A stretch of 64,000 bases of DNA from an uncultured Candidatus Saccharibacteria bacterium (GTDB taxonomy: Bacteria > Patescibacteriota > Saccharimonadia > Saccharimonadales > AWTP1-31): the NCBI GenBank assembly GCA_964409615.1, contig CAYPDT010000001.1:499880-563879 (forward strand). The letters are read 5' to 3'. The translations under genes and the position numbers were made by a program. Under the pieces are notes generated by a model that was given only the letters and a program-made list of their open reading frames with translations, ran no database searches and was not told where the DNA came from. This document shows positions 3,507 through 46,566 of this stretch, piece by piece. Positions within the stretch are counted from its first letter, which is position 1; every line of letters begins with the position of its first letter.

Positions 3507-3512
3507 TATAAT
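3507..3512 (+). promoter_or_regulatory. extended -10 box TGcTATAAT, 9 nt before the LCP ATG (leaderless-type promoter)
   Basis: tgcTATAATttgccccatATG read directly. There is no Shine-Dalgarno sequence between the box and the ATG. Confidence 0.45.
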
Positions 3513-3521
3513 TTGCCCCAT

Positions 3522-5249
3522 ATGCGCGAAGAAAATCGCTTCAGAAAACAAACACCAAAAAACTCGCTCGACGGTTTTATTCCTCAGCGCCCACGGCATA
3601 TAACAACACCTGAGTACTACCGGAAAGCCACAGAAATTGGCCGCACTCCCCGTCGGTCTGTTGCGAGTCGACGTCGTCCTATCGACCCTGAAGCAATTCA
3701 GCACGACAAGCCAGAAGAGCCAATCCCCCGTATTGCTAACTTCGACCAAAAGGAAACAGATATTTTTGACACCAAAGCTCCAATAACTCCCCTCGACGAA
3801 AAACCGCTATCTCGTCGTGCGCGCAAACAAGAAAAGAAAGAGAAGAAGCACGGGAAGCTTCGAACCTGGTGGAGGAACCGCTCACGCCGATTTAAAGTAA
3901 GCATCATCTTACTAGTATTGGTACTGCTCGGCGGAGGCCTGCTGGGATACCGACTTTATGGCTTCTTAAACTCTGTATTTGGCCGAGGTATTGGGAACAG
4001 CAGCTCTGCTGCCTTAAACGGCGAAGTTCGACCAGAAGACTTAAATACCGAAGGTGATGGTCGCCTCAATGTCTTGTTACTTGGTCGTGGCGGTAGCGAA
4101 AACGAAGCACCCGACCTGACCGATACACTACTAATTGCAAGTATCGACCTCAAAAACCAAACCGCTTCACTACTCAGTATTCCTCGTGACACTTATGTCG
4201 ATAATCAAAGTGATAATAGTAAAATAAATGGTGTTTTTAGTCGCGCTAAAGAACAGGCCCTTTACCGTGGACAAAATAACGACCAAGCCGAAGATGCTGG
4301 CATCAAGGCAACTATTTCAGCAGTCCGAAATATTGCCGGGGTACCTATCCATAAATATGTACTAACCGATTACAAAGCTTTTCGCGACGTAGTGAATGCC
4401 CTTGGTGGTGTAGATGTAACAGTTCCAGAGGCTATCTATGATGGCTTCACCGGCTGGAGTTTCAAAGCTGGCGCCCAAACCATGAATGGCGATAAAGCTC
4501 TGCAATATGCCCGTACTCGGCACGGTAGTGACCGCGGTGACTTTGATCGCACCGAAAACCAGCGACGGTTATTAATCGCCATGCGCCAAAAAGCTACTAG
4601 TACTGGTATTGTGGCTAATCCTATTCGACTGAATAGCCTCGCCAATGCGGTCCAGAAAAACATCCGAACCGACTTGAGTATCGACGAATCTCGATCTGTT
4701 TTTGACAAACTCAAAACGATGCCAGAAACCAGCATCAAATCACTAGACCTTGACGACCCTAAAGCTCCTCTAGTAACTACTGGAATGGCTAATGGCCAAT
4801 CAATCGTGCGACCTCTTGCCGGGCTAGAAGACTACACCAAAATACGCGCCTACGCTCGTACTAATATGATGGATCCGTACCTTAAGCAAGAATCACCAAC
4901 TATTGCCGTCTATAACGGCTCTAGTAAAGCTGGCACAGCAACACTTGTTGGCGACATCTTGGCTGGCTACGGATATAAAGTGCTCGAAAAAGAAACCAGC
5001 AAAGAGGTGCAGCCAAAAACCCTCATCATTAAAGTTAATAAAGATGCTAAAAAACCGTTTACCGAACGCTTCTTAACTGTTCGCTTCGGAACGGTAATTA
5101 CCAGTGAATTGCCTGCAACTATCATTCCTGCAGAGAGTAAAATTACCACTACCAAGCCTGCGCAGGGTGCTACGAGCACTAAGCCGATGCCCGACTACAT
5201 CATCGTACTCGGTGCCGATTATCGCCAGGAAAACGGCCCCACCTGGTAA
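3522..5249 (+). CDS. LytR-CpsA-Psr (LCP) family glycopolymer ligase with a basic cytoplasmic tail, one TM segment and a LytR_C-like C-terminal domain
   Basis: LNVLLLGRGGSENEAPDLTDTLLIASIDLKNQTASLLSIPRDTYV and ALQYARTRHGSDRGDFDRTENQRR are LCP core motifs. I moved the start from the TTG at 3501 in the track to the ATG at 3522, because a TATAAT box lies inside the track's 5' extension. Confidence 0.9.
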   Translation: MREENRFRKQTPKNSLDGFIPQRPRHITTPEYYRKATEIGRTPRRSVASRRRPIDPEAIQHDKPEEPIPRIANFDQKETDIFDTKAPITPLDEKPLSRRARKQEKKEKKHGKLRTWWRNRSRRFKVSIILLVLVLLGGGLLGYRLYGFLNSVFGRGIGNSSSAALNGEVRPEDLNTEGDGRLNVLLLGRGGSENEAPDLTDTLLIASIDLKNQTASLLSIPRDTYVDNQSDNSKINGVFSRAKEQALYRGQNNDQAEDAGIKATISAVRNIAGVPIHKYVLTDYKAFRDVVNALGGVDVTVPEAIYDGFTGWSFKAGAQTMNGDKALQYARTRHGSDRGDFDRTENQRRLLIAMRQKATSTGIVANPIRLNSLANAVQKNIRTDLSIDESRSVFDKLKTMPETSIKSLDLDDPKAPLVTTGMANGQSIVRPLAGLEDYTKIRAYARTNMMDPYLKQESPTIAVYNGSSKAGTATLVGDILAGYGYKVLEKETSKEVQPKTLIIKVNKDAKKPFTERFLTVRFGTVITSELPATIIPAESKITTTKPAQGATSTKPMPDYIIVLGADYRQENGPTW

Positions 5250-5250
5250 C

Positions 5251-5275
5251 GTTTCCAAGGTCCGACCTTGGAAAC
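5251..5275 (+). terminator. 10-bp perfect stem-loop directly after the LCP stop codon
   Basis: GTTTCCAAGG-tccga-CCTTGGAAAC begins 2 nt after the TAA. The T-run (tttttt) comes only about 20 nt later, so this is not a textbook intrinsic terminator. Confidence 0.45.
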
Positions 5276-5334
5276 AAGAGAAATGTGATTTGGTATGTTT
5301 TTTAAAAAGCGACCATAAGGGGTAAAATAAGGGA

Positions 5335-6768
5335 GTGAAAAATAACGCTTCGTTCGGCTATGCTCTCTTTTTAGTTATTGGCGACTTCCTAACCCTGCTG
5401 GCGGCGTTTAGCCTAGCTTACATCCTGCGAGTAAAACTCGACTCCCGGCCACTGGTGGAGATTATTACAGCTAAGGATTATTTTGTTGCCATGTTTAGCA
5501 TTTTGCCTCTGTGGATTATGGTTCATGGTTTTATTGGCCTCTACAATCAGCGGGTCTACGAAAAGCGCTTTCATGAAATTGGCCGACTATTTGTAGGCTC
5601 GATATTAGGTATTCTGGTGTTGATTGGCTACGACTTTGCCAGCAATAAGGGCCTCTTCCCAGCCCGCCTAGTGCCAGTCTACGGCCTACTGATTGGTTTT
5701 AGCTTTCTGGTAATATTCCGCACCCTTTCACGCCTGACTCGACGCTTTTTGTATCACTTCGGTATCGGCGTTAGTAATGTACTAATTGTGGGAGATACCT
5801 CTAGCTCGGCTGAAATTGCCCAGACAATTGCCCACACCGAAACCTCTGGGCAGCGAGTATTGGGCATAGTGGGCCGAAAAGCCGAAGGATTTGTCTATTA
5901 TCCTAACTTCTCTGAAGCTTTAAGTAAAATTACCCTACCCATCCATAGCATTATCCAAACCGAATTGTACAAAGACCAAGATAAGAACGATACTGTTCTA
6001 CGGTTTGCGCAAGCCAATCACGCCGCCTACCGCTTTGTTCCCGGTAACAATGACCTATTCGTTGGCAACATCGAGGTAGAGTTATTTGTTGGAGGCATCC
6101 CGATGATTGCCGTTCACCAAACAGCTCTGGTTGGCTGGGGGCGCATTGCTAAACGACTTTTCGACCTAGTGGTATCAAGCATACTGATTGTGCTACTCAG
6201 CCCGCTTTTATTGCTCATCGCCCTCCTGGTGAAGCTAACCGACCCTAAAGGCCCAGTACTTATGCACGGCGTACAGCAAAAACGTCTGACACGGTTTAAT
6301 AATGTCTTTGATGTGTACAAATTCCGCTCGCACTATGCCAAGTTCGATGGCAAAAGTTATGAGGAAGTATTCGCCATGATAGGAAAACCAGAGCTACTTG
6401 AGCGGTACAAAAAGAATGGCTACAAGCTAGATAAAGATTTCCGCGTCACACCATTTGGCCGTTTTATTCGTAAGTACAGCCTAGACGAATTACCCCAGTT
6501 ATTTAATGTCTGGAAAGGCGACATTAGCCTTGTCGGGCCACGTGCGCTCATTCCTGCCGAACTAAACACATATGAAAAGAAGCACACTATACTAAGCGTA
6601 AAGTCGGGCCTGACTGGATTAGCACAGATATCTGGACGAGTTGATATCGACTTCGAAGAACGACGAAAGCTGGATATGTACTACGTGCAAAACTGGAGCT
6701 TCTGGCAAGACATTGTGATTATGATTAAAACCGTTCGCGTTGTACTTCGAGGTAGTGACGCCCAATGA
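5335..6768 (+). CDS. polyprenyl-phosphate hexose-1-phosphate transferase (WbaP/CpsE-type initiating sugar transferase)
   Basis: The C-terminal bacterial sugar transferase domain shows RFIRKYSLDELPQLFNVWKGDISLVGPRA. The N-terminal half has multiple TM segments. The start is GTG, with AAGGGG 12 nt upstream. Confidence 0.9.
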   Translation: MKNNASFGYALFLVIGDFLTLLAAFSLAYILRVKLDSRPLVEIITAKDYFVAMFSILPLWIMVHGFIGLYNQRVYEKRFHEIGRLFVGSILGILVLIGYDFASNKGLFPARLVPVYGLLIGFSFLVIFRTLSRLTRRFLYHFGIGVSNVLIVGDTSSSAEIAQTIAHTETSGQRVLGIVGRKAEGFVYYPNFSEALSKITLPIHSIIQTELYKDQDKNDTVLRFAQANHAAYRFVPGNNDLFVGNIEVELFVGGIPMIAVHQTALVGWGRIAKRLFDLVVSSILIVLLSPLLLLIALLVKLTDPKGPVLMHGVQQKRLTRFNNVFDVYKFRSHYAKFDGKSYEEVFAMIGKPELLERYKKNGYKLDKDFRVTPFGRFIRKYSLDELPQLFNVWKGDISLVGPRALIPAELNTYEKKHTILSVKSGLTGLAQISGRVDIDFEERRKLDMYYVQNWSFWQDIVIMIKTVRVVLRGSDAQ

Positions 6769-14111: not shown

Positions 14112-15161
14112 CTACTTCTTTTTTAATAGTTCAGCAATTTGTTTCACTTTTTGCGATTGGTCCGTGCGCATAACCAGCACCCCGTTTTCGGTATTCACCA
14201 CCACAACATTATCCATGCCAATAACCGCTACCGGCCGTTCGGGACAGTCATTTCGCACATACACCTGTGCGCTGTCAATAACATGTACTTTGTCACCAAC
14301 TACAGCATTGCCATTTTGGTCACGACTGCTTACTTGGTGAATTTCGTCGAACGAACCAACATCCATCCAGTCGAAGGTACCTGGCATAACAAGCAAGTCA
14401 GTCACCTTTTCCATCAGGGCAGTATCTATGGCTTCTTTTTCAAAGTCCAGATATATCTCGTCACGTTCGGCCGTTGACTTTGCCCCAGCTAGTCGATCTA
14501 GCTGAGTAGTCCAGTGTTTGTCGGCAAAGTTGTGAATCTTTTGTTCGAACACATTGTATGGCGCAACAAAATAGCCCATGTTCCACAGATATTCACCACT
14601 CTCGAAATATTGTTTAGCAATTTCGTAGGGTGGTTTCTCTTTAAAGCTACTGATTTCATAGACAAAGTTTTCACCCTCGGTAGAATCACCTTTATGAATA
14701 TAGCCGTATTTAGTATCCGGCTGGTTGGGTTCCATGCCCAGCAAAGTAATTTTTTGATGCTTACGCGAGATTTCACCGGCTCGTTTAATCGCCCCGGCAA
14801 ACCCCCGCGCATCTCTAATTTGGTGATCAGCATGGATTGAAGCTATTGGTTCATTATGGTCGTGCCGTGTACTAATAAACTGCAGAGCATTCATGATACA
14901 AGGCATGGTGTCGCGCCGTGCCGGCTCTACAATTACATGGTCTTTGGCTAGCTCTGGTAACTGTTCGAAAACATGGTCTGAATGGCTTGCTTCGGTAGAA
15001 ATGTAAATTTTGTCTATAGAGGTGATTTTCTTTGCACGAGCAAAGGTGTTTTGCAGTAGCGATTTGTCGCCCACAATACTAAGCAAATGTTTGGGGTATT
15101 CGGGTACAGATAACGGCCACAAGCGCGTTCCAGACCCTCCAGCGATGATGACAACAATCAT
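14112..15161 (-). CDS. manC: mannose-1-phosphate guanylyltransferase
   Basis: MIVVIIAGGSGTRLWPLS is the nucleotidyltransferase signature. At 349 aa it has the ManC N-terminal domain without a fused PMI domain. Confidence 0.85.
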   Translation of the reverse strand: MIVVIIAGGSGTRLWPLSVPEYPKHLLSIVGDKSLLQNTFARAKKITSIDKIYISTEASHSDHVFEQLPELAKDHVIVEPARRDTMPCIMNALQFISTRHDHNEPIASIHADHQIRDARGFAGAIKRAGEISRKHQKITLLGMEPNQPDTKYGYIHKGDSTEGENFVYEISSFKEKPPYEIAKQYFESGEYLWNMGYFVAPYNVFEQKIHNFADKHWTTQLDRLAGAKSTAERDEIYLDFEKEAIDTALMEKVTDLLVMPGTFDWMDVGSFDEIHQVSSRDQNGNAVVGDKVHVIDSAQVYVRNDCPERPVAVIGMDNVVVVNTENGVLVMRTDQSQKVKQIAELLKKK

Positions 15162-15212
15162 ACGACTATTATGCTATGACGAACTATATTTCCAAAGTTA
15201 TGGACGTAAAAA

Positions 15213-16163
15213 TCAATTATTTTTTTGAATTCTGGGATTACCAACACCTTGCAAGTAACGGATAAAATGCACAACAGTGAATAGAATGGCACGCTGCTGA
15301 AAGGCTCTTTTATCTACGAACCGTGCGTTACTCATTTCAAATTCAGTTTGCTCTGCAGGATGTCGGTATTCTACAGGCACACTCTTCACCCTGTGACCCT
15401 GGTGTAATGCCGCAACAATGGGCAGGAACAAGGCATTCGCCCAAAGCCCTGGTGCCTGCTGATCCAGGCCAGTAACTTTTTCGTCTACGAACTGATAATC
15501 GACGGTAAACAACTCTAATATTTCTGGGCTATTCTTAAAGAATCGAGGACCAAACCACGCATCTAAATCTGGTGCATCTATAGGGTATAATCCAAATCGT
15601 CGCAATAAACCGTTATACAGTCTATTACTTTCTTGCTCGAAACCAACCTGAAAATCGGGGTACGTGTCAAAGGCTTCTTGATTCCGGCATGGTAGTACGA
15701 CGTCTGCTTCACCATCGAGAATTGCTTTTGCTGGATCAACTAGGTTGTCTGTGGCCATCGATAACTTCTCAGGTTCAATCCAGCCAATAACTTTAATGCC
15801 GTCCAAGGCAGCAGCAGCCCTAAATGCTTGTTGGCGGCCCTTACTCATCCCCTCTTCTTCTTGTGCCAACACGCTTACCGACCCTCGGCTGATTGCGTCA
15901 ATAAAGTCTGGCGAGCTACCTCCATCGACTACAATTACCCTGAATCCCTGATTCGAGGCAGCCTGAATAGTTTGTACTGCTAAATCACCTCTAAGTTTTG
16001 ATTCACTGGGATGCTCACCCTCTGGAACTTCACCCGGATACCAATCCCGGTATAAGGTGCCTGTAGTTAATCCTACCTGTTGGGTGATATGTTCAATTTC
16101 TGGGTTGGGAACTATTTCCGTGAATGAAGGTTGTGGTTCATAAGATGTCCCGGGTGATGTCAT
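15213..16163 (-). CDS. hypothetical protein, weak GT-A-like features
   Basis: The ORF is 316 aa, and its stop-to-start spacing fits the operon. FRVIVVDGGSSPDFIDAI resembles a GT-A beta-strand/D motif. The product is unknown. Confidence 0.5.
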   Translation of the reverse strand: MTSPGTSYEPQPSFTEIVPNPEIEHITQQVGLTTGTLYRDWYPGEVPEGEHPSESKLRGDLAVQTIQAASNQGFRVIVVDGGSSPDFIDAISRGSVSVLAQEEEGMSKGRQQAFRAAAALDGIKVIGWIEPEKLSMATDNLVDPAKAILDGEADVVLPCRNQEAFDTYPDFQVGFEQESNRLYNGLLRRFGLYPIDAPDLDAWFGPRFFKNSPEILELFTVDYQFVDEKVTGLDQQAPGLWANALFLPIVAALHQGHRVKSVPVEYRHPAEQTEFEMSNARFVDKRAFQQRAILFTVVHFIRYLQGVGNPRIQKNN

Positions 16164-17107
16164 TACAATACTTTAAAATATTCAATGGTTTTTTGCAATC
16201 CGTCTCTCAATGCCACAGTTGGCTCCCAATTAAGTACTTCCCTGGCCCGAGTGATATCTGGTTTTCGTTGCAATGGATCATCAGCAGGGAGTGGCGCATG
16301 CTTAATTCGAGATTGCGAACCAGTAAGTTCAATCACTACGTCTGCAAGTTGCTCTATGGTGAATTTTCCAGGGTTACCTAAGTTCATTGGGTCTGATTCT
16401 TCTGAATCAATCAAACGAGCGATGCCCTCTACTAAATCTGACACGTAGCAAAAACTGCGAGTCTGCGTGCCTTCGCCGTAAATTGTCAGGTCTTTGCCAG
16501 CAAGTGCTTGAACGATTAAGTTAGAAACAACTCGACCATCATCTGCATCCATCCGGGGGCCGTAGGTGTTGAAAAAGCGTGCAATACACGTTGACGTTTC
16601 TGGATAGCGCTGGCGGTAGGAATAAATCAACGCCTCAGCGTACCGTTTTGCTTCGTCATACATCGCCCGGGGGCCGTAGCAGTTAACACTACCCCTGTAG
16701 CTTTCGGGTTGCGGGTGAACAAGTGGGTCACCGTAGACCTCACTGGTACTCGCTTGGAAAAAGCGTGCTTGCTTATCGCGAGCCAGCTCTAGTAATCTCA
16801 GCGTGCCTTCTGATCCAACTCGTAATGTTTCAATGCTCAATCTCTGGTAGTGTGGTGGACTTGCCGGGGAAGCCATATTGAGTATGATGTCATAGGATTT
16901 TTGAGTAACATTTTGAGGCAGCTCTTCAACAATATCAGCCACAATAAAACTAAAATTACTATCGTTTTTTAGGTGGGCAAGATTATTCTCGCTACCCGTA
17001 GATAGGTTATCGATTGCCACGACTTCGTAGCCTTTGGCAAGATAGTAGTCAGCCAAGTGCGAGCCCAAGAAACCAGCACCTCCACTAATAAGTACGCGCT
17101 TACTCAT
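16163..17107 (-). CDS. uxs: UDP-glucuronate decarboxylase (UDP-xylose synthase), extended SDR
   Basis: VLISGGAGFLGSHL, ASPASPPHYQ, ASTSEVYGDP and YDEAKRYAE closely follow the UXS pattern I recall from UXS1-type enzymes. I set the start at the ATG at 17107 (MSKRVLISGG), not the track's 17194, which would overlap ugd by 95 nt. Confidence 0.85.
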   Translation of the reverse strand: MSKRVLISGGAGFLGSHLADYYLAKGYEVVAIDNLSTGSENNLAHLKNDSNFSFIVADIVEELPQNVTQKSYDIILNMASPASPPHYQRLSIETLRVGSEGTLRLLELARDKQARFFQASTSEVYGDPLVHPQPESYRGSVNCYGPRAMYDEAKRYAEALIYSYRQRYPETSTCIARFFNTYGPRMDADDGRVVSNLIVQALAGKDLTIYGEGTQTRSFCYVSDLVEGIARLIDSEESDPMNLGNPGKFTIEQLADVVIELTGSQSRIKHAPLPADDPLQRKPDITRAREVLNWEPTVALRDGLQKTIEYFKVL

Positions 17108-18428
17108 GTTTGCCAACTGTCTTTCGGCCCATTGATTCATAATAAAATCCATGGCCCTGCATATCGGATGTGCTATATAAATTGCGTCCGTCAAAAATGA
17201 CAGGTTTCTTCATTAAATCTTTAACACGCTTCCAGTCGGGCGAAAAGAACTCATTCCAGTTAGTAGCGATAACTAATGCATCAGCATCTTTGAGAATACT
17301 GTATTCGTCTTCCCCAAACTCTAGTAGACTATTTTCACTGTAGGCGCGTCGAACATTCTCTATAGCCTGCGGGTCGAAGGCAATTACCTGCGCCCCTTCA
17401 GCGGTTAATACATCAACCACCGTCAGTGCCGGTGACTCTCGAATATCATCAGTGTCGTCTTTAAATGCCAGCCCCCATAGTGCAATCTTTTTGCCTTTGA
17501 GCTTGCCTTTATAGTAATTAAGAACTTTAGCTGGTAGGCGCTGCTTCTGTTCTTCGTTAGTCTTAACTGTTGCAGTAACGATATGAAGCTGAATACCGTG
17601 TTCGTTTGCCATGTTCTCTAATGCTAGGGTGTCTTTAGGAAAACAACTACCACCATAGCCAGGGCCAGGATACAAAAACTGCGAACCAATCCGGGCATCC
17701 ATGCCCATACCTAAACGCACCGCTTCTATATCGGCGCCAGTGGCTTCGCAGAATGCCGTGAGCGCATTAATAAAACTAATTTTTGTTGCCAAGAAGCCAT
17801 TGGCCGCATACTTAATAGTCTCGGCGGATGCAGTATCTGTAACCATAAACCGCTCGGGTGCTTCCCGAACAAGGGGTAGATATACTTGTCGCATAATCTC
17901 GGCACCCTGTGGTGTTTGCACCCCAACAACAATGCGATCAGGTGACAAAAAATCGTTTATTGCTTGCCCTTCCCTTAAAAATTCTGGGTTAGATACTACC
18001 TCGAAAGAGACTGAGCTATTTTTAGCAACTGCAGCATGTACTTTCTGTGCCGTACCCACCGGCACGGTGCTCTTATTAACAATCACCGTGCTTTTGTTTT
18101 GGATTATTGGCCCGAGTTGTTTTGCAACACCAAGCACATAGCTTAAGTCAGCCGAGCCGTCGTCGCCCGGAGGGGTAGGTAAAGCCAGAAAGATGACTTG
18201 CGCATCTTTTACTGCGCTCAGTTGCTGACTAAAGCGTAATCTTCCTTCTTTTACATTACGGTGCACCAAGTCATCAAGGCCTGGCTCGTAAATAGGAATC
18301 ACCCCTTTTCGTAACTTCTCTACTTTTTCAATATTATTATCAATACAAATTACGTCATTACCAATTTCGGCAAGACACGTACCACTCACAAGACCAACAT
18401 ACCCGGTTCCAATAACAGCTATTTTCAT
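17100..18428 (-). CDS. ugd: UDP-glucose 6-dehydrogenase
   Basis: MKIAVIGTGYVGLVSGTCLAEIGNDVICID and the catalytic GGSCFPKD motif. Confidence 0.95.
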   Translation of the reverse strand: MKIAVIGTGYVGLVSGTCLAEIGNDVICIDNNIEKVEKLRKGVIPIYEPGLDDLVHRNVKEGRLRFSQQLSAVKDAQVIFLALPTPPGDDGSADLSYVLGVAKQLGPIIQNKSTVIVNKSTVPVGTAQKVHAAVAKNSSVSFEVVSNPEFLREGQAINDFLSPDRIVVGVQTPQGAEIMRQVYLPLVREAPERFMVTDTASAETIKYAANGFLATKISFINALTAFCEATGADIEAVRLGMGMDARIGSQFLYPGPGYGGSCFPKDTLALENMANEHGIQLHIVTATVKTNEEQKQRLPAKVLNYYKGKLKGKKIALWGLAFKDDTDDIRESPALTVVDVLTAEGAQVIAFDPQAIENVRRAYSENSLLEFGEDEYSILKDADALVIATNWNEFFSPDWKRVKDLMKKPVIFDGRNLYSTSDMQGHGFYYESMGRKTVGKHE

Positions 18429-18435
18429 TACGATA

Positions 18436-18441
18436 ATTATA
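18436..18441 (-). promoter_or_regulatory. -10 box TATAAT, 7 nt before the ugd ATG (leaderless-type)
   Basis: The minus strand reads cttaTATAATtatcgtaATG. Confidence 0.4.
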
Positions 18442-18490
18442 TAAGAGTTTTACTAGTTTGCTTAACTTTGACAGTAATTATGATTATGAC

Positions 18491-18496
18491 TATATT
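18491..18496 (+). promoter_or_regulatory. -10-like TATATT, 6 nt before the ATG at 18503
   Basis: gacTATATTtacaacATG read directly. Confidence 0.35.
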
Positions 18497-18502
18497 TACA
18501 AC

Positions 18503-19399
18503 ATGACATTTCAAAAAAACTCAAAGGGCTTTGCACACATCGGGATAATTGCGGTACTAACCGTTACTACTCTGGTAGTGATTATTGGATTATTAGTATA
18601 TCGTAATCGTGATAAAACATCATCCAAAACAGAAACCAAACAAACACAACAAAAACTAACTCCAAAACAGATTGAGGCAACTAAGGTGGTAACCGTACCC
18701 GACCTCCAACAAAAAGGCGAAGTCACGGGCAGTTTTGTGCAGAATAACGGTGTTTCCTGGCCAAATAGTCAGCAAGTAGGCTACATTGGCGTAACTGTCA
18801 GTAATCCAGCAAATGTAAGTAAGGTGGAATGGTATCTTAATAATTTAGATAGCGGTTCACTCAAGTATGCTCAGACAAAAGCATCCGTAGGAAGCCTGTA
18901 TCAATATGATTGGTCACTACAAGGACTGCCCGGTGGTGTTTATCATTGGCTAGCTAAGATTTATGACAAGAATGGCAAGGTTCAGTTAGCTAAGAATAAC
19001 CTAGGTGATTCGTATATTGATATGGTTGTTAACGTAGCTGAATCAACAAACGATAATGGGACAGTTAGTGGTACTTTTGTGCAGCAAAATAATATTTCCT
19101 GGCCAGGAAGTCAAAGCGAGGCTTACGTTGGCGTTTCGGTTGATAACCTGAGTCAGATTAGTAAAGTCGAATGGTATCTTGGTAGTTTCAGTCCAGAAAA
19201 TATGCTTGCCTCACAGGCGGGTGGTGGAGTCAAAAACCTTAATGATGCTGGCGGCCTAGTGCAATACAGCTGGCCGATTTCACAGGTCCCGAGTGGTACT
19301 TACCGCATTCTGGCCAAGGTCTATGATTCTGCTGGAAACTATCAGGTCGTAAAGAATAGCCAAGGTGGATTATTCGTCGATATGAAGATTAAGTCATAG
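18503..19399 (+). CDS. membrane-anchored surface protein with two tandem Ig-like modules
   Basis: An N-terminal TM segment (HIGIIAVLTVTTLVVIIGLLVY) is followed by two copies of about 110 aa sharing VSG(T/S)FVQ.N..SWP.SQ....GV.V.N....SKVEWYL. The start is reset from the track's TTG at 18458 to the ATG at 18503. Confidence 0.65.
   Translation: MTFQKNSKGFAHIGIIAVLTVTTLVVIIGLLVYRNRDKTSSKTETKQTQQKLTPKQIEATKVVTVPDLQQKGEVTGSFVQNNGVSWPNSQQVGYIGVTVSNPANVSKVEWYLNNLDSGSLKYAQTKASVGSLYQYDWSLQGLPGGVYHWLAKIYDKNGKVQLAKNNLGDSYIDMVVNVAESTNDNGTVSGTFVQQNNISWPGSQSEAYVGVSVDNLSQISKVEWYLGSFSPENMLASQAGGGVKNLNDAGGLVQYSWPISQVPSGTYRILAKVYDSAGNYQVVKNSQGGLFVDMKIKS
18716..19393 (+). repeat. internal two-fold domain duplication (about 110 aa each) within the CDS 18503..19399
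   Basis: Copy 1 starts GEVTGSFVQNNGVSWPNSQQ and copy 2 starts GTVSGTFVQQNNISWPGSQS. The copies are diverged at the nucleotide level. Confidence 0.75.
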
Positions 19400-22115: not shown

Positions 22116-22169
22116 TAGCCCGTGTGTTTTAAAAGAAGACAATTCATGACAAACATCGACGATTAAAGC

Positions 22170-22175
22170 TATACT
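22170..22175 (+). promoter_or_regulatory. -10 box TATACT, 6 nt before the ATG at 22182 (leaderless-type)
   Basis: aagcTATACTgcttctATG read directly. Confidence 0.4.
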
Positions 22176-22181
22176 GCTTCT

Positions 22182-27521: not shown

Positions 27522-27528
27522 TTAAGCT

Positions 27529-27534
27529 ATACTA
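27529..27534 (-). promoter_or_regulatory. -10-like TAGTAT, 7 nt before the ATG at 27521
   Basis: The minus strand reads attaGTATAGCTTAAATG, which can be parsed as TAGTAT-agcttaa-ATG. Confidence 0.3.
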
Positions 27535-27600: not shown

Positions 27601-27606
27601 TATAGA
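27601..27606 (+). promoter_or_regulatory. -10-like TATAGA, 7 nt before the ATG at 27614
   Basis: ccgcTATAGAaaaattcATG read directly. Confidence 0.3.
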
Positions 27607-27613
27607 AAAATTC

Positions 27614-31210: not shown

Positions 31211-31218
31211 CGAGTGAA

Positions 31219-31224
31219 ATTATA
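31219..31224 (-). promoter_or_regulatory. -10 box TATAAT, 8 nt before the ATG at 31210 (leaderless-type)
   Basis: The minus strand reads ggtctaTATAATttcactcgATG. Confidence 0.4.
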
Positions 31225-31304
31225 TAGACCACAAGTACATTTACAAAACATCCTGACCTAAATCACAACAGTATATAATAAAACCACGGAGACAATGTAT
31301 TCAC

Positions 31305-33409: not shown

Positions 33410-33415
33410 TATAAT
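33410..33415 (+). promoter_or_regulatory. extended -10 TGtTATAAT, 8 nt before the ATG at 33424 (leaderless-type)
   Basis: catttgtTATAATggttactaATG read directly. Confidence 0.45.
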
Positions 33416-33423
33416 GGTTACTA

Positions 33424-34617
33424 ATGACTAAATCTTCTAAAAATGTGGCTAAAATTTTTGTTGATTGTGAAGTTCTTTGCCTGGAGCACTTCAGTGGCAT
33501 CGGCCACTACACTGCAGCCTTAATGCGAGAAGTAGACAAACTGCTTGATTTACCCGAGTATCAGCATTACCAAGTAACCCTTGGGGTGCCTTGGCGATTA
33601 GCATATCGAATACAGCGTTTTAACTTTAAGAACTTTACAATAAAACGAATGCCCCTTGGCCCACGCATTACAAATCAACTCAAAATGCGTAATCTACTGC
33701 CACCTCTAGACAGTATTTTCGGTAAGCAGGTGTACATATTCCCGCACTTTAGCACCTGGCCGACTATGAAAAGTCCAAGTATTCCAGTTATCTATGATTT
33801 GTCATTTGTTCTACACCCTGAATTCTCTGCAGATTTAAATAGTCGCTTCCTTAACAAGCAGACTAAGCTTGCTGCGGAACGTGCGACAAAAATTATCACA
33901 ATCTCGCAGAATAGCAAAAATGAAATAGTCGACCACTACCAGGTTAGCGCAGAAGATGTTTCCATTATCTACCCTATTATTGACGCCGCAGAATTCTACC
34001 CACGAACCGCCGAAGAAATTAAAACCGTACGAGCAAAGTACGGTGTTTTTGGTAAGTACATACTTTTCGTAGGCAATATTGAGCCACGCAAAAATCTTGC
34101 ATCACTTCTTCGTGCTTACTCAATGCTAGACCCAGAACAACTACAAGACTACTCACTGCTTTTGGTAGGCGCTAAAGGCTGGAAAGATGGCGAGATTCAC
34201 GACCTCATCACCGATTTGCAGCGCAAAGGTCTTAAAGTAGTACAACCCACAGGATACGTTACCGATGAAGATATGCCGGCCTTGGTTAGCGGTGCTTCAA
34301 TCTTCACATATGTTAGCCGCTACGAAGGTTTCGGCATCCCCCCAGTAGAAGCCATGTTTTGTGGTACGCCAGTTATATCCAGTGACAACTCTTCTTTACC
34401 CGAAGCCGTAGGCAAAGCAGCACTCATGGTAAACGCGGAAGATATCCAAGAAATTAGCAACGCAATTAAAAAACTCCTGGGGAGTCCTGCACTACAAAAA
34501 GAACTCGTAGAGGCTGGCTTTACTCACATTAAGAATAAAATGTTTGACCCCGTACAAGGCGCCCAGACACTTCTTGAACTAGCAGACCAAGCAGACAAAA
34601 AAGGAGCACGCAAGTGA
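33424..34617 (+). CDS. GT4-family glycosyltransferase (mannosyltransferase-like)
   Basis: ILFVGNIEPRKN and FTYVSRYEGFGIPPVEAMFCGTPVISS are GT4 motifs. Confidence 0.85.
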   Translation: MTKSSKNVAKIFVDCEVLCLEHFSGIGHYTAALMREVDKLLDLPEYQHYQVTLGVPWRLAYRIQRFNFKNFTIKRMPLGPRITNQLKMRNLLPPLDSIFGKQVYIFPHFSTWPTMKSPSIPVIYDLSFVLHPEFSADLNSRFLNKQTKLAAERATKIITISQNSKNEIVDHYQVSAEDVSIIYPIIDAAEFYPRTAEEIKTVRAKYGVFGKYILFVGNIEPRKNLASLLRAYSMLDPEQLQDYSLLLVGAKGWKDGEIHDLITDLQRKGLKVVQPTGYVTDEDMPALVSGASIFTYVSRYEGFGIPPVEAMFCGTPVISSDNSSLPEAVGKAALMVNAEDIQEISNAIKKLLGSPALQKELVEAGFTHIKNKMFDPVQGAQTLLELADQADKKGARK

Positions 34618-36055: not shown

Positions 36056-36858
36056 TACACTTGCTCCGCAAAGTATCGTGACTGTGACTTAAAGTAAATG
36101 ACCGAAATGACTAGAATCACCAGGACAATAGTCAGGGGTAATAACCGCATAGTCGGATTGGCATAGATACTACTAATCGTTTGGGTTTTAGGTGTTATTA
36201 GCACATACCGTGCGTCTTGGACTATCTGAGCTACTGGGTTAATCATGAGGACCTTAGCTGCAGCTACCGGTACTTTGCTAAGGGGGTATAGGAGAGGTGT
36301 AGCATAAAATGCACCCTGCATAACCACGTCCCAAATATAGGTAATGTCTCTGAATCGCACGAAAGCGGTGCTCAAGAAAAAACCAAGCGAGAGAGCGAAT
36401 ACAAACAATTCCAGGACTAACAAGGGGAGAAGTATTGCCTCTGGTCGCAAATCAACTTTATTAACGTACATAAAAACACCTACAACCAGCAGATTGAGTA
36501 CGAGGTTTATAAGAGCTGACACTGAATTCGCTAAAACAATGATGTATTTTGGAAAGTTAATCTTTCGAATCAAATCACCGCTAGAAACTATTACACTCAC
36601 ATTACCAGTGGTTATCTCGATAAAGAAGTTCCAAAGCACTATACCCAGCAACAAGTACACCGGATAGTGCGGCACATCGCGCCCGATATCTAGGAAGCGC
36701 GTAAACACAATATAGAGAATGACAAATATAGCCAACGGCCGTAGCAATGACCAAATGTAGCCAAGTACCGAACCCTGGTACCGTAGCTTAAAGTCAGTCT
36801 TGACTAGCTGTCTTAAAAGAATTATTGGATATCTGTAGCGTTGGGTAATATTTTGCAC
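36055..36858 (-). CDS. ABC-2 type polysaccharide exporter permease (Wzm/TagG type)
   Basis: 267 aa with 6 TM segments. Its stop overlaps the ATPase start by 1 nt. The start is GTG. Confidence 0.85.
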   Translation of the reverse strand: MQNITQRYRYPIILLRQLVKTDFKLRYQGSVLGYIWSLLRPLAIFVILYIVFTRFLDIGRDVPHYPVYLLLGIVLWNFFIEITTGNVSVIVSSGDLIRKINFPKYIIVLANSVSALINLVLNLLVVGVFMYVNKVDLRPEAILLPLLVLELFVFALSLGFFLSTAFVRFRDITYIWDVVMQGAFYATPLLYPLSKVPVAAAKVLMINPVAQIVQDARYVLITPKTQTISSIYANPTMRLLPLTIVLVILVISVIYFKSQSRYFAEQV

Positions 36859-36909
36859 TTCATCTTATTTTATATCTCTTTAGGCTATGCATCAATGTGA
36901 GTTTACATC

Positions 36910-36915
36910 TATACT
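36910..36915 (+). promoter_or_regulatory. -10 box TATACT, 6 nt before the ATG at 36922 (leaderless-type)
   Basis: catcTATACTaataggATG read directly. Confidence 0.4.
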
Positions 36916-36921
36916 AATAGG

Positions 36922-37857
36922 ATGAAGAAAACTATACTTGTCGTCGGCGTAAATGGATTTGTAGGTAAGCACCTTGCAAAGGAACTGCATGATGCAGGCT
37001 TTGCAGTCTATGGAACCGGACTCGACCCCGAAGCCGCAAGTGAAATAAAAGACTACGTCGACAGCTACTCTCAGTGCGACCTAACAGAGATAGAACAAAT
37101 TGCTAACCTACAACTTGAAGACATCGATGGCGTGATAAACCTTGCCGCCCTCGCTACCCCAAGCCAATCCTCAATACAACCAGAGCTATATAACAAAGTA
37201 AACGTACTCACCCACACTAACCTTTTGGACCGATTGGTTGAACTCAAGAAAAACATACGTGTTTTAGCCATTAGCACTGGTGCAGTGTACGACAGCAACC
37301 AACCAATGCCACTGACTGAAGATAGTACTTTAGTCACCTCAGGCTCTCCATATGCCATGAGCAAACTACAAATGGAAGAAAAGATTGAGAAATACCGAGA
37401 GTTGGGCTACGAAATAATCATCGTTCGCCCGTTTAATCATACCGGCCCAGGTCAAGGCCCAGGCTTCATAGTCCCCGACTTGACCATGCGTGTGATTAGA
37501 GACAACAAACTTGTGGTTGGTCCCTTAAATACACAACGCGACTACACTCATGTAAGCGACGTAGTGCGTGCATACCGAACGTTAATCGAACATCCAGAGG
37601 CCCTAAAGTACCATGTTTATAATGTCTGCTCCGGCGTAGCCACGTCGCGTGACGACCTAATCAAAACTATAGAAGATACTACCGGCAAACATAATCTAGA
37701 GATAACAGTCGACCAATCACTCGGCCGACCAAGCGACCCACTTGTGCTCTTTGGCAGCCACGACCGACTAACAGCCGAAACCGGCTGGCAGACAACCAAG
37801 ACTGTCGGTGAGACTGTTTCGGATTATGTTGCCTGGGCTCAATCCCAAACAACATAA
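36922..37857 (+). CDS. extended SDR, GDP-4-keto-6-deoxy-D-mannose reductase (Rmd)-like
   Basis: VGVNGFVGKHL, SPYAMSKL, VRPFNHTGPGQ and YNVCSG parallel the Rmd pattern I recall. Substrate specificity is not provable from the sequence. Confidence 0.7.
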   Translation: MKKTILVVGVNGFVGKHLAKELHDAGFAVYGTGLDPEAASEIKDYVDSYSQCDLTEIEQIANLQLEDIDGVINLAALATPSQSSIQPELYNKVNVLTHTNLLDRLVELKKNIRVLAISTGAVYDSNQPMPLTEDSTLVTSGSPYAMSKLQMEEKIEKYRELGYEIIIVRPFNHTGPGQGPGFIVPDLTMRVIRDNKLVVGPLNTQRDYTHVSDVVRAYRTLIEHPEALKYHVYNVCSGVATSRDDLIKTIEDTTGKHNLEITVDQSLGRPSDPLVLFGSHDRLTAETGWQTTKTVGETVSDYVAWAQSQTT

Positions 37858-38928: not shown

Positions 38929-39378
38929 CTATTCTCCTTCTAAATTACGACGTGAGTCTTGTTGGTGACGAAACACAAAAACATGGAACAGTATATAGTT
39001 CCAAACCATAATACAACCCACCGTACCCATTTTAACAAGTATGCGGGGTAATAGGTTATGTTTCTCGTTAATTTCTAAACATAGGTAGGTAAAGCCCGTA
39101 TTCCACAAAAAAAGCCCGATAAATAGGGGTAGTGATTCCGTTATGCGGCGAGCTTCTTTGTGACGCTTGCTAAACCTAAGCTGATTGAGCGTGAAAGAGA
39201 TGATAAAACCAGCCACAATACCAGCCGTGGTAGCAATTAGCAGGTTGTGGCTGAATCGATCAACAAACAGCAACGTACTATAGTCGGCCGCAAAAGCACA
39301 GGCTCCAGACAATCCAAAAAGCAGTAAATCTACTTTGTGGTCGGCAATCAATGCACGTATTCGTTGTACTAGTTTCAT
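38929..39378 (-). CDS. GtrA-family membrane protein (second copy)
   Basis: 149 aa with four hydrophobic segments and WNYILFHVFVF near the C-terminus. The gene lies directly upstream of gmd. Confidence 0.7.
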   Translation of the reverse strand: MKLVQRIRALIADHKVDLLLFGLSGACAFAADYSTLLFVDRFSHNLLIATTAGIVAGFIISFTLNQLRFSKRHKEARRITESLPLFIGLFLWNTGFTYLCLEINEKHNLLPRILVKMGTVGCIMVWNYILFHVFVFRHQQDSRRNLEGE

Positions 39379-39407
39379 CTGTTCTTAAAGTATAGCAAAC
39401 CTAAAGC

Positions 39408-40742
39408 TCATCGATTGGTGGCTATTTTTGACTTGGTCCTAGTGGTCATAACTAACCCAGCCAGCCCCCACCATGTGTAGGCAACCGACTCGTTGGACCA
39501 AATATGTACAAGAATATTGGTAAGTGCCAGCCCAGCGAACGCTGCTAATAGAGCGGTGGCATATGCTGAATCACCTGTTGCACGATATAGTCTTACTGCA
39601 ACCAAGATAAGAATTGCCAGGAAGAGGGTAAGGCCTAAGACTCCAACTTCAGTAGCAACTTGCAGGTAATAATTTTCATTAAGCTGGGTTCCTTGCACGT
39701 TGTTACGGATTGAAGCCAGTCCCGCACGCCCCGGCCCCAGACCAGCTGGATTATGCGCTATCTTTACAACCGATTCGCGCAAAAACCTAACACGCAATTG
39801 GTTTGGGTCTTCCAGTGAAGTGCTCTGGTCGGCATGAAAAATAACATTTTGCACAAAGTAACTATTGCGCAGCGCAAAGGCAGATGCCAAAAACCCAATG
39901 GCAGCGACTGCCAGCACAACCAATCCAACTCTAAACTGTTTACGGGACAGTTTTACGTGACTTCTGCCCACAAGCGCAGCTGCACAAGCCAGGGCAACAA
40001 CCAACCCTAGTAGTGCACTCCGTGAAAAGGTTAGCAGCAAACACAGGCCAGCCATTAGGCTAACCCCAGACCAAATTAACTTTGCTCGCTTGGCGCTCTT
40101 TTGGCGCCATGCCATCGCCAAGCTCATCACGATTATCAGATAAGACCCCAGGGAATTTGGATCACGCAGGGTAGACATAACACGCTCAAGATCCGGCTTG
40201 TCATCAATAAAGAATGCCGGCAAAACACCGTTACTCCTGACAAATCCCAAATGTGTAAGTGCGTCGTTCGGTAATAGCACATATTGTATAACCCCGAATA
40301 AAGCCACCACGGTGCCAGCAACCAGAGAAATCAGAATAGAGGCTTGTAGAATGTTTCGTTTTGGAAATGTTTTTACCAACAACCATGCATACAAGAAAAA
40401 AACTAGGAATCGTAAATTATAGGTGACGCCAAGAACTTCGGCATCGGTGTCGGTTGGTCGCACTAGTGCAAGAAGTAGCGTAAGCGCTGCATATAGCACA
40501 ATCACCAGAACAAGCTTGTTTTTCAACCACTCTTTAAACCAAGATTGATGGAAGCTCGCTAACATAATTGAACAAAAACCGAACACTAACACTATGTCTT
40601 TGAGAACTTTCATGAGCGCGAGCCCACCAATATTAGCGCCAATCACCGTTGAGATAAATATATGGAACGGCATATACGCCAGCAATCCGTAAAATATCTT
40701 AAGACTGTGTTCTTGAAGCGCGTTTACTATTTTTTTCTGCAT
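39408..40742 (-). CDS. O-antigen ligase/polymerase-like (Wzy_C domain) membrane protein
   Basis: 444 aa with about 11 TM segments. LLLTFSRSALLGLVVALA plus a following loop is typical of the Wzy_C family. Confidence 0.65.
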   Translation of the reverse strand: MQKKIVNALQEHSLKIFYGLLAYMPFHIFISTVIGANIGGLALMKVLKDIVLVFGFCSIMLASFHQSWFKEWLKNKLVLVIVLYAALTLLLALVRPTDTDAEVLGVTYNLRFLVFFLYAWLLVKTFPKRNILQASILISLVAGTVVALFGVIQYVLLPNDALTHLGFVRSNGVLPAFFIDDKPDLERVMSTLRDPNSLGSYLIIVMSLAMAWRQKSAKRAKLIWSGVSLMAGLCLLLTFSRSALLGLVVALACAAALVGRSHVKLSRKQFRVGLVVLAVAAIGFLASAFALRNSYFVQNVIFHADQSTSLEDPNQLRVRFLRESVVKIAHNPAGLGPGRAGLASIRNNVQGTQLNENYYLQVATEVGVLGLTLFLAILILVAVRLYRATGDSAYATALLAAFAGLALTNILVHIWSNESVAYTWWGLAGLVMTTRTKSKIATNR

Positions 40743-40756
40743 ACCTGACTCTATTG

Positions 40757-40762
40757 TAAACT
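40757..40762 (+). promoter_or_regulatory. -10-like TAAACT, 6 nt before the ATG at 40769
   Basis: attgTAAACTgaatgtATG read directly. Confidence 0.35.
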
Positions 40763-40768
40763 GAATGT

Positions 40769-41875
40769 ATGAATATCGTTATAGATGCCCGTAATCGTCC
40801 GTCTAGCACGGGGCGCTATACCGACCGACTGCTGGAACATTTGCAAAAAATAGACACAGATAATAGCTATACTGTCCTTTTACAGCCATCCGATACCTGG
40901 AGGCCGACAGCCAAAAACTTCAATACCCTCCCCTGCCCGTATCAGCAATTTTCGATTAGCCTCAAGGAACAGGTTGGATTTACTCGACTGCTTCGTAAGT
41001 TGCGGCCCGATGTAGTGCACTTTACCATGACCCAGCAACCACTTTTTTACAGGGGCAATATCGTAACGACTACCCACGACCTAACAATGCTTCGCTTTAC
41101 CCGAGCAGGGCGACATTCTAAGTTGTTCCACGCTCTTCGGATGGCTCTATACCGTTTGATGTTTTGGTGGAGCCATAAGAAAAGCACCAAAATTATTACC
41201 GTCTCAAAATTTGTTGCTTCAGACCTGACAAAACTTCAGCCATCTGTAAAAAACAAGATTACTACAATATATGAGTCCAGCGAGCCGCCTGTTTCGCAAA
41301 AAGCTGAGGCGGTCGAAGGCGTTGGTAAACAATTTATCATGCATGTGGGTAGCCCGTTCCCTCACAAGAACATACCCCGACTCATCGAGTCGTTTGAGCA
41401 GATTGTCGAGACTCATCCCAAACTACAGTTAGTACTGGCAGGTAAGCCCGAGTATTACTTTGGGCAACTACAAAAACAAATTGATGAAAGCCCCGCTAAA
41501 CAAAACATTATTGTCACTGGTTTCGTGAGTGACGCTCAGCTTAAATGGCTCTACCAATATGCCATTTGCTATGTACTGCCATCATTAAGTGAGGGCTTTG
41601 GGCTTCCTGGTCTTGAGGCGATGGCCCATAAGTGCCCCTTAGTTAGCAGTAATGCAACCTGCCTACCTGAGGTGTACGGCGATGCCGCTCTATACTTCAA
41701 CCCGCTAGACGTGGAAGACATGACCTTAAAAATAGAGCGAATACTATCCGACAACCAACTAGCGTCGCTATTAAAACTCCGTGGCGAAACTCAACTCAAA
41801 AAATATTCATGGGAGCGCATGGCCGAACAGACACTGGCAATTTACAATGAAACGAATCACTCATCAGAATTGTGA
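40769..41875 (+). CDS. GT4-family glycosyltransferase
   Basis: FIMHVGSPFPHKN and CYVLPSLSEGFGLPGLEAMAHKCPLVSS are GT4 motifs. Confidence 0.85.
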   Translation: MNIVIDARNRPSSTGRYTDRLLEHLQKIDTDNSYTVLLQPSDTWRPTAKNFNTLPCPYQQFSISLKEQVGFTRLLRKLRPDVVHFTMTQQPLFYRGNIVTTTHDLTMLRFTRAGRHSKLFHALRMALYRLMFWWSHKKSTKIITVSKFVASDLTKLQPSVKNKITTIYESSEPPVSQKAEAVEGVGKQFIMHVGSPFPHKNIPRLIESFEQIVETHPKLQLVLAGKPEYYFGQLQKQIDESPAKQNIIVTGFVSDAQLKWLYQYAICYVLPSLSEGFGLPGLEAMAHKCPLVSSNATCLPEVYGDAALYFNPLDVEDMTLKIERILSDNQLASLLKLRGETQLKKYSWERMAEQTLAIYNETNHSSEL

Positions 41876-44993: not shown

Positions 44994-45004
44994 GGTAGAA
45001 CCTC

Positions 45005-45943: not shown

Positions 45944-45981
45944 AACTCCTGGTTATTCACCTTATTTTACCATGCACTTCT

Positions 45982-46341
45982 CTACTCTTGAGGAGAAATC
46001 GCTTGAACGGCTTGTTCGAGTAGGCCCGAGAGGCTTTTTTGTAACTCGCTAGTCGGTACCGTTGCCACCTGATCAGTATAGATTGTAACGACGATATCGA
46101 GACTTGGTTGCTGCTGTGGGTTAAGCAGCCGCATTTGCTCGTACACTCTTCGCCGTATCCGATTCCTCACCACCGCAGACTTGCTTATTTTTTTACTAAC
46201 CACCACCGCACAGCGGTATGACGACCGCTTGGCGTTTGGTGCAACCCGAAGCGCCAACATAGAAGAACGCACGGTCTTTCCGTGCGCGTACACAAAACGT
46301 AAGCTGTTATATCCGTGAAAACGATGGTTTCGGGCAATCAT
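45982..46341 (-). CDS. rnpA: ribonuclease P protein component
   Basis: VVVSKKISKSAVVRNRIRRRVYE is the RnpA RNR motif. The gene lies downstream of rpmH. Confidence 0.9.
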   Translation of the reverse strand: MIARNHRFHGYNSLRFVYAHGKTVRSSMLALRVAPNAKRSSYRCAVVVSKKISKSAVVRNRIRRRVYEQMRLLNPQQQPSLDIVVTIYTDQVATVPTSELQKSLSGLLEQAVQAISPQE

Positions 46342-46358
46342 ATATGTAGTATACCGTT

Positions 46359-46390
46359 AATACGCCCCGCTTTTTTAAGTGGGGCGTATT
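46359..46390 (-). terminator. stem-loop between rpmH and rnpA (possible attenuator)
   Basis: AATACGCCCC...GGGGCGTATT forms a 10-bp perfect stem with a 12-nt loop, 17 nt upstream of the rnpA ATG. No U-tract follows. Confidence 0.35.
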
Positions 46391-46416
46391 GTTCTAGCTA
46401 AAAAGTTTCTGGCAGC

Positions 46417-46554
46417 TTATGAAGAAAGTTTTGCGCGACCCTTGTTGCGTCGTGCCTGTAGTACTCTTCGCCCAGCTTTTGTTGCCATTCGCTTAAGAAA
46501 GCCGTGCTCTTTTGCGCGGTGTCGCTTTTTTGGTTGGTATGTTCGCTTTGGCAT
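46417..46554 (-). CDS. rpmH: 50S ribosomal protein L34
   Basis: My own minus-strand translation gives [45 protein letters not shown]. The gene is not in the ORF track because it is under 60 aa. The track ORF 46379..46567 (+) is its antisense. Confidence 0.95.
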
Positions 46555-46560
46555 AGTTGT

Positions 46561-46566
46561 ATTATA
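46561..46566 (-). promoter_or_regulatory. -10 box TATAAT, 6 nt before the rpmH ATG (leaderless-type)
   Basis: The minus strand reads aaggtTATAATacaactATG. Confidence 0.4.

Follow-up and report, generated by a model that had tools for sequence, protein, structure and literature searches.

The closest described system is the gene-start architecture that GeneMarkS-2 places in its 'group C', in which a Pribnow box lies 6–8 nt from where the first genes of operons begin, Shine-Dalgarno (SD) sequences are found elsewhere and 25–50% of the operons are leaderless (PMC6028130). This group is typical of Actinobacteria and Deinococcus-Thermus, and in D. deserti 167 of 262 mapped genes are leaderless (PMC6028130). 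A similar architecture was found in a 64-kb stretch of contig CAYPDT010000001.1 from an uncultured Candidatus Saccharibacteria bacterium (hereafter the window), where, at first genes, a TANNNT hexamer resembling the bacterial -10 element stands 6–8 nt ahead of the start codon and SD sequences precede internal genes and the remaining first genes. The arrangement extends to 57% of the first genes in the window and to about 24–26% in its relatives, for which start calls are crude; the share is comparable to that in group C, roughly 25–60% of transcription units. It differs from group C in that the saccharibacterial genome is far more compact: the promoters predicted here from sequence lie in spacers of 12–40 nt, and in relatives some of them take in the stop codon of the gene before. 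Archaeal leaderless mRNAs (group D) are likewise transcribed from the start codon of first genes and carry SD sequences at internal genes; their TATA box, however, lies about 26 nt upstream, whereas a bacterial -10 box at about -10 is seen here and no peak appears at -26. As in group B (Bacteroidota/FCB), many genes lack an SD sequence and are preceded by A/T-rich DNA. In group B, however, the motif is found ahead of internal genes as well as first genes and is part of a leader (PMC6028130), whereas the hexamer described here is limited to first genes and internal genes carry an AGGAG-type SD.

The hexamers are read here as sigma-70-type -10 elements that would give rise to leaderless mRNAs at first genes, a reading to which we assign a probability of roughly 0.8. 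Transcription from sigma-70 promoters begins about 6–8 nt past the last base of the -10 element, with a purine preferred, and leaders of 0 to about 4 nt are usually classed as leaderless. We infer from this geometry that RNA polymerase would start at the A of the ATG or 1–3 nt before it: a gap of 6 nt between hexamer and start codon would place the start on the A itself, gaps of 7–8 nt would give the same start or a leader of 1–2 nt, and gaps of 9–10 nt a leader of 2–4 nt. The resulting mRNAs would have neither a 5' leader nor an SD sequence, and ribosomes would presumably bind the 5'-terminal AUG directly. Operon-internal genes would be served by ordinary SD-dependent initiation, and a minority of the first genes would also use an SD or other leaders (dnaA and the genes starting at 31305, 3358 and ~1390(-)).

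About 53 genes were called in the window, which has a G+C content of about 46% and very tightly packed genes, many neighbours overlapping or lying less than 40 nt apart. A box was scored when a TANNNT hexamer with at least 4/6 identity to TATAAT ended 6–9 nt before the start codon, and a gene was taken as first-type when it was divergent from its neighbour or began at least 15 nt past a co-directional one. A box is present at 16 of the 28 first-type genes, as against one of the 24 internal genes and 62 of the 1884 ATGs of the window (3.3%; binomial p ~4e-17 for 16/28 versus this background). With a match of at least 5/6 the box is found at 12 of 28 first-type genes versus 1.2%, and dropping the two starts (3522 and 18503) that had been moved in an earlier, sequence-only reading of this DNA would leave the excess unchanged. 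An origin of this excess in chance, or in AT-rich intergenic composition combined with post-hoc choice of sites, might be suspected, since the genome has 45% G+C and TANNNT occurs at a gap of 6–9 nt before 6.6% of all ATGs; moreover, in a generic promoter scan of the window the total of promoter-like matches equalled the shuffle expectation, and only the top-ranked matches are informative. The three best -35/-10 matches between 17.5 and 37.4 kb (TTGACA-17-TATATT, ATGACA-18-TATACT and TTGTAA-16-TATAAT) end just short of three of the listed start codons, with gaps of 6 nt at 18503, 6 nt at 22182 and 8 nt at 31210. Binomial p values of ~1e-13 to 1e-17, the lack of any excess at other offsets in the same upstream sequences, the replication in 80 other species and the absence from controls refute chance as an explanation, and its probability is negligible.

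As a check, the sequence-only reading had proposed to ask whether TANNNT is enriched at about -7 to -12, and this was run on the window together with 80 related loci (L001–L080; best genome hits, dnaA ± 10 kb, 1.27 Mb in total), which stood in for a genome-wide scan; the outcome was clearly positive. The DnaA protein of the window shares 91% identity with that of an uncultured Candidatus Saccharibacteria MAG. The titles of these loci name Saccharibacteria, Saccharimonadales or the Patescibacteria group, with the exception of a few labelled only 'bacterium' and one Candidatus Pristimantibacillus sp. Genes were called blind as long non-overlapping open reading frames (ORFs) from the first ATG, so that the box had no influence on the choice of start, and their products, 837 proteins of the 80 loci plus 46 of the window (883 in all), were clustered into 202 families, each weighted against repeated counting of orthologues (123 families in first-type and 104 in internal contexts). 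Box frequency shows a sharp peak at gaps of 6–8 nt in divergent genes and in genes 15–39 nt past their neighbour, and is flat in genes less than 15 nt past it. After family weighting, the box is found at gaps of 6–8 nt in 19.6% of first-type cases, compared with 5.3% at flanking offsets (a 3.7-fold peak) and 1.5% in internal genes. When any 5'-proximal ATG was permitted, 26% carried the box, versus 2.2% of in-frame ATGs taken as decoys from far within these genes. The identical pipeline gave only 10.5% versus 7.0% on a control set of contigs totalling 0.9 Mb and obtained from a metagenome scan with the Ugd protein, in which only L081 and L134 are close relatives and the remainder (~55% identity) belong to other phyla.

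The enrichment is specific to the -10 pattern. TANNNT is 3.1-fold enriched at gaps of 6–8 nt, whereas seven composition-matched permutations (ATNNNT, TTNNNA and TANNNA among them) range from 0.5- to 1.9-fold. An unbiased search for 5-mers at -18 to -4 found TATAC, CTATA, GCTAT, TATAA, ATACT and ATAAT, together with AGGAG, enriched in first genes, and SD words only (AGGAG, AAGGA, GGAGC) in internal genes. The selected hexamers converge on TA(T/C)AAT, with A in 74% at position 4 and in 64% at position 5, compared with 42% and 39% in controls. These data bear on a second explanation, in which the hexamer would be a non-SD translation signal (AU-rich, unstructured or S1-binding) inside a longer 5' untranslated region transcribed from upstream promoters, as in the Bacteroidota-type group B. 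In its favour, hexamer and SD occupy the same zone (-7 to -15), about one fifth of the rpmH orthologues carry an ambiguous AAGG overlapping TAnnnT, and a second promoter-like pair (TTGTAA-17-TATATT) is located 31 nt upstream of the rpmH ATG. A translation signal would, however, be expected before internal genes too, where the box is nearly absent (1/24 in the window, 1.5–5% in relatives); composition-matched permutations show no such enrichment, and the peak is sharp at 6–8 nt, its hexamers sharing the A of position 2 and the T of position 6 with -10 elements. The near exclusivity of ATG beside the box (see below) is also unexpected for leadered mRNAs, and the divergent spacers of 26–74 nt would push upstream promoters into the neighbouring coding sequence. 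A translation signal of this kind is thus considered improbable. Divergent pairs in the window lie 26–94 nt apart, except for 3358/3522 (163 nt) and rpmH/dnaA (304 nt), and starts at this distance leave room for two core promoters and none for leaders.

The earlier proposal that two initiation modes coexist is borne out by the distribution of both signals, the box being confined to first genes and SD cores (GGAG, GAGG or AGGA) being present in 60% of internal genes versus 21% of divergent genes in the relatives. Box and SD were never observed together in divergent genes (13 expected), an avoidance that arises partly because both compete for the same bases. Intergenic sequences cannot be aligned among the relatives, yet the distance between box and ATG is kept; for rpmH, the window has TATAAT and L001 TATACT, both at a gap of 6 nt. 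In the orthologues of rpmH, rnpA and the glycosyltransferase gene at 40769 across L001–L080, a -10 box at a gap of 6–9 nt alternates with an AAGGA/AGGAG-type SD at the same place. When each orthologue was scored at the codon that aligns with the first residue of the window's protein, rpmH (n = 76) had 29 orthologues with a -10 box only, 25 with an SD only, 16 with both and 6 with neither. The corresponding figures are 29, 19, 0 and 26 for rnpA (n = 74) and 50, 3, 4 and 13 for recF (n = 70). For dnaN (n = 79) the SD clearly dominates (-10 only in 1, SD only in 74, both in 1 and neither in 3), and dnaA and the yidC-like and jag-like genes are SD-led in the same way. This turnover, followed in about 80 species, suggests that orthologues have repeatedly switched between leaderless and SD-led starts. 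The start codon is ATG in 124 cases and non-ATG in 3 beside a -10 box, versus 245 and 46 beside an SD (Fisher p 2e-5, indicative only, as orthologue counts share phylogenetic history); a preference of this kind would be expected if translation begins on a 5'-terminal AUG. In many relatives (L070, L006, L034, L021, L064, L078 and L062, among others) the stop codon of dnaN (TAA or TAG) doubles as the opening bases of the recF -10 box. At the L070 junction the sequence reads gcTAAAATagaacc followed by ATG, and the whole spacer at such junctions measures about 12–13 nt.

Conserved N-termini, domain boundaries, Pfam profile position 1 or at least 70 orthologues settle the start codons of ugd, the epimerase gene, rpmH, rnpA and recF, and therefore the hexamer is not placed far upstream of the true start. 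The sequence-only reading had also warned that start calling would be affected, and this is seen at the gene starting at 18503, where NCBI uses the ATG (298 aa) and Logan/JGI a TTG at 18458 (313 aa); the latter would put an acidic, aromatic extension of 15 residues before a signal-anchor-like N-terminus. In a third explanation the promoters would be real and the annotated starts wrong, translation beginning at a downstream codon of a leadered mRNA. At 27521 this has some appeal, as the GT2 domain boundary would be better matched by a start at one of the in-frame ATGs found at codon 20 and codon 25, and the starts at 3522 and 18503 had been picked partly for their box. Against it, the products of ugd, the epimerase gene, rpmH, rnpA, recF and the DegT and GT4 genes align from residues 1–16 to Pfam profiles or to 47–76 orthologues, a downstream candidate start bearing an SD is absent at 10 of the 11 sites first listed, and the blind first-ATG calls still yield the peak. 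Wrongly annotated starts are accordingly judged quite unlikely, slightly more so than the translation signal discussed above.

Leaderless initiation from -10 boxes remains the preferred reading, and several observations weigh against it or against individual sites. Besides the better-placed internal ATGs at 27521 and the shared history of the orthologue counts, a general -35 element is not conserved in the aligned set; in the window it is good at 18503 (TTGACA), 22182 and 31210. Gaps of 8–10 nt (3522, 31210, 33424, 39378 and 40742) fit a leader of 1–4 nt better than none. The hexamer at 27614 (TATAGA) lacks the invariant final T and is the least convincing of the eleven, two candidate sites (5335 and 36858) begin with GTG, and neither of two gene starts located just left of the window (in L161) has a box, although these are too few to weigh. 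A G at -14, one base before the hexamer, reaches 49% versus 25% without weighting and falls to 36% versus 28% when families count equally. As an independent proof of promoter identity it was therefore downgraded, being largely due to the rpmH and recF families. The T of an extended TGn motif is not enriched; in the window, G is present in 9 of 18 sites and the full TGn in 3.

Each of the eleven hexamers listed in the sequence-only reading is present with the position, gap and start codon given for it, and no SD lies in between, GGAG, GAGG or AGGA occurring at -20 to -4 in none of them. Their description as operon-leading is secure for nine, which are divergent and so first in their unit, and is an assumption for 22182 and 33424, which start 66 and 32 nt past a co-directional gene. 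The list itself missed eight further sites of the same kind and included two weak ones (27614 and 27521). Nine of the eleven ATGs are the first possible start, with an in-frame stop 1–19 codons upstream, and an in-frame upstream TTG exists only at 3522 and 18503.

The first of these sites (3507–3524, +) precedes the gene for an LCP (LytR_cpsA_psr) protein, divergent from 3358(-), and consists of TGcTATAAT (hexamer 3507–3512) 9 nt before the ATG at 3522. This ATG is the start in every public gene call (575 aa), and the alternative TTG at 3501 falls at the extended -10 element. Upstream of the UDP-glucose dehydrogenase gene ugd (18426–18441, -), TATAAT (18436–18441) is separated by 7 nt from the ATG at 18428. 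The ugd product opens with the Rossmann N-terminus MKIAVIGTGYVG, which fixes the start, and Pfam profile position 1 is aligned to its residue 1. In its closest orthologue (L081, 74% identity) TATAAT is kept at a gap of 7 nt amid otherwise diverged sequence, while the Ugd genes of other phyla are mostly without it. The divergent gene for a membrane-anchored Big_7 protein (18468–18505, +) has TTGACA (18468–18473), a spacer of 17 nt and TATATT (18491–18496) at a gap of 6 nt from the ATG at 18503; with a match of 11/12 this is the best promoter-like site within 17.5–37.4 kb. At 22146–22184 (+), ATGACA and TATACT (22170–22175) are 18 nt apart, and the gap to the ATG at 22182 is 6 nt. The weak site of a GT2 glycosyltransferase gene (27519–27534, -) has TAGTAT (27529–27534; match of 4/6) 7 nt before the ATG at 27521, and TATAGA (27601–27606) lies at the same gap from the ATG at 27614 (27601–27616, +). 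The gene for a DegT-type aminotransferase (31208–31246, -) is preceded by TTGTAA, a spacer of 16 nt and TATAAT (31219–31224), 8 nt from the ATG at 31210. A GT4 glycosyltransferase gene (33410–33426, +) has TGtTATAAT (hexamer 33410–33415) at a gap of 8 nt from the ATG at 33424. For the NAD-dependent epimerase gene (36910–36924, +), TATACT (36910–36915) is placed 6 nt before the ATG at 36922; this start is fixed by the N-terminus MKKTILVVGVNGFVG, and four of five orthologues in relatives carry a -10 box at a gap of 6–9 nt. A second GT4 glycosyltransferase gene (40757–40771, +) shows TAAACT (40757–40762) at a gap of 6 nt from the ATG at 40769, with a divergent start at 40742, 26 nt away, and its orthologues in L042 and L033 keep TTGTAAACT and TTGTAGACT, respectively, at the same gap. 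Finally, rpmH, encoding L34 (46552–46566, -), has GgtTATAAT (hexamer 46561–46566) 6 nt before the ATG at 46554.

Among the eight additional sites, rnpA (46339–46353, -) carries TATACT (46348–46353) at a gap of 6 nt from the ATG at 46341, and recF (49635–49651, +), which starts 36 nt past the dnaN stop, carries TACACT (49635–49640) at a gap of 8 nt from the ATG at 49649. At 39376–39394 (-), TGcTATACT (hexamer 39389–39394) lies 10 nt before the ATG at 39378, and the leader would be about 3 nt long. The BacA/UppP gene (2421–2438, -), located 18 nt past the preceding gene, has TATACT (2433–2438) at a gap of 9 nt from the ATG at 2423. At 15159–15173 (-), CATAAT (15168–15173) is found 6 nt before the ATG at 15161, with TTGGAA 16 nt upstream and an overlapping TAGCAT at a gap of 9 nt. 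Two sites are uncertain: a Bac_transf sugar transferase gene (5323–5337, +; TAAAAT at 5323–5328, gap 6 nt, GTG at 5335), where leaderless use is less certain because the start is not ATG, and an ABC-2 permease gene (36856–36895, -; TTGATG, spacer 17 nt, TAAAAT at 36867–36872, gap 8 nt, GTG at 36858). The last site belongs to a gene for a Wzy_C/O-antigen-ligase-like protein (40740–40758, -), with TACAAT (40753–40758) at a gap of 10 nt from the ATG at 40742. The candidate hexamers of 40742(-) and 40769(+) overlap by 2 bp on opposite strands, and with the -10 elements opposed in this way both -35 regions would fall in the coding sequence of the other gene. The arrangement resembles a symmetric bidirectional promoter in its opposed, overlapping -10-like hexamers and divergent transcripts. 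Such promoters were reportedly described by Warman et al. in 2021 with a -10 overlap of 5 bp and start sites 18 bp apart. A canonical promoter of this type was rejected for 40742/40769, as its geometry differs (an overlap of 2 bp and predicted starts about 23 bp apart).

Strong SD sequences are also present in the window. The sequence-only reading had named AGGAGG at dnaN, and this motif was located at 48507–48512 (48507–48523, +), 8 nt before the true start, the ATG at 48521. It had further placed GAGGAG at a VirB6-like gene. The SD does exist (63930–63935; 63922–63935, -), 5 nt before the TTG at 63924 of the first listed gene of a type IV secretion-like cluster, whereas the VirB6-like identity of the 1077-aa protein has no Pfam support. 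A few first genes are organised differently: a box is missing at dnaA and lies farther upstream at 3358(-) and 31305(+), and the gene at ~1390(-) lies behind a riboswitch. The boxes of 3358 and 31305 are good ones (TATACT and TATAAT) placed 22–24 nt before the ATG, and neither gene has a well-positioned SD: 3358 lacks one, and the sole candidate at 31305 is a GGAG that ends 13 nt from its ATG. These two genes may be expressed from short-leader mRNAs without a functional SD, which would make a possible third class of start. The riboswitch is a cobalamin riboswitch at 1444–1568 (-; Rfam RF00174, 33.8 bits versus a gathering score of 31.5), directly upstream of the gene for a 505-aa protein without a Pfam family, which runs off the left edge of the window (gene 11038–12555 in L161). 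To judge by this position, the gene would be clearly leadered, in the same genome, and controlled by the riboswitch. A scan with Rfam for known leader RNAs found none at the sites, the sole hit being this riboswitch elsewhere in the window.

A large cell-envelope polysaccharide cluster occupies 3.5–44.5 kb and encodes the LCP protein, Ugd, DegT, GT2 and GT4 transferases, the epimerase, a Wzy-like protein and ABC-2 proteins. Next to ugd, the ORF at 16163–17194 (-) overlaps this gene by 95 nt when its longest form, starting at TTG 17194, is taken; translation likely begins instead at the ATG at 17107, which would give a Rossmann N-terminus (MSKRVLISGGAGFLGSH) and an 8-nt overlap with the ugd stop; an SD is not evident at this start. 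The origin region (rpmH-rnpA and dnaA-dnaN-recF) lies at 46–51 kb, where the cumulative GC skew turns, and DnaA boxes searched for around oriC showed no enrichment. A 95-aa ORF (48234–48521, +) occupies the dnaA-dnaN spacer; it has no Pfam match and a tblastn match in one of the 80 related loci, and DnaA-box-like 9-mers with one mismatch each are found in or near it at 48258 and 48513. This ORF may be non-coding DNA of the origin region. The type IV secretion-like cluster at 50727–63924 (-) comprises a PrgI-family protein, a TraG/VirB4-like P-loop ATPase, a protein with a phage-tail-lysozyme domain, a 1028-aa protein with a C-terminal VanY domain and the 1077-aa protein without a Pfam match.

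The initiation mechanism proposed here is known and not new, and it appears in a lineage in which it is apparently undescribed. Among the papers searched, none reports leaderless mRNA in Saccharibacteria, TM7, Patescibacteria or the candidate phyla radiation (CPR), although Saccharibacteria may already figure under group C in the GeneMarkS-2 tables. In a study of CPR ribosomes, the anti-SD is lost only in some Parcubacteria and leaderless genes are not discussed; in the saccharibacterial ribosome, uL30 and bL9 are lost, bL32 is usually lost and bS1 is short (PMC9297842). The distance from -10 element to start is described as unusually variable in N. lyticus TM7x in a promoter survey that used 188 start sites inferred from RNA-seq coverage (PMC12641261), the only start set for Saccharibacteria met in the literature searched.

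For annotation, the finding implies that gene callers without a leaderless model choose upstream TTG or GTG codons, and the public calls are already split in this way between 18458 and 18503. Saccharibacteria have recently been made transformable, and expression cassettes could consist of a -10 box and an ATG without a ribosome-binding site, with native promoters predictable from sequence. In evolutionary terms, a CPR lineage with a reduced ribosome would be added to the leaderless-rich clades, and the orthologue series offers material to trace the switch between SD-led and leaderless starts. If the reading is true, a full promoter fits in a spacer of 12–40 nt and at times overlaps the stop codon of the preceding gene or an opposed promoter. 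It is tentatively proposed, at slightly less than even odds, that leaderless initiation is a principal mode for operon-first genes in Saccharibacteria, and possibly in Patescibacteria at large, which would make them a further major bacterial lineage of this kind, with rpmH, rnpA, recF and a GT4 gene switching repeatedly. Keeping the genome small would then depend in part on leaderless expression, and a ribosome without uL30, bL9 and bL32 would have to serve it.

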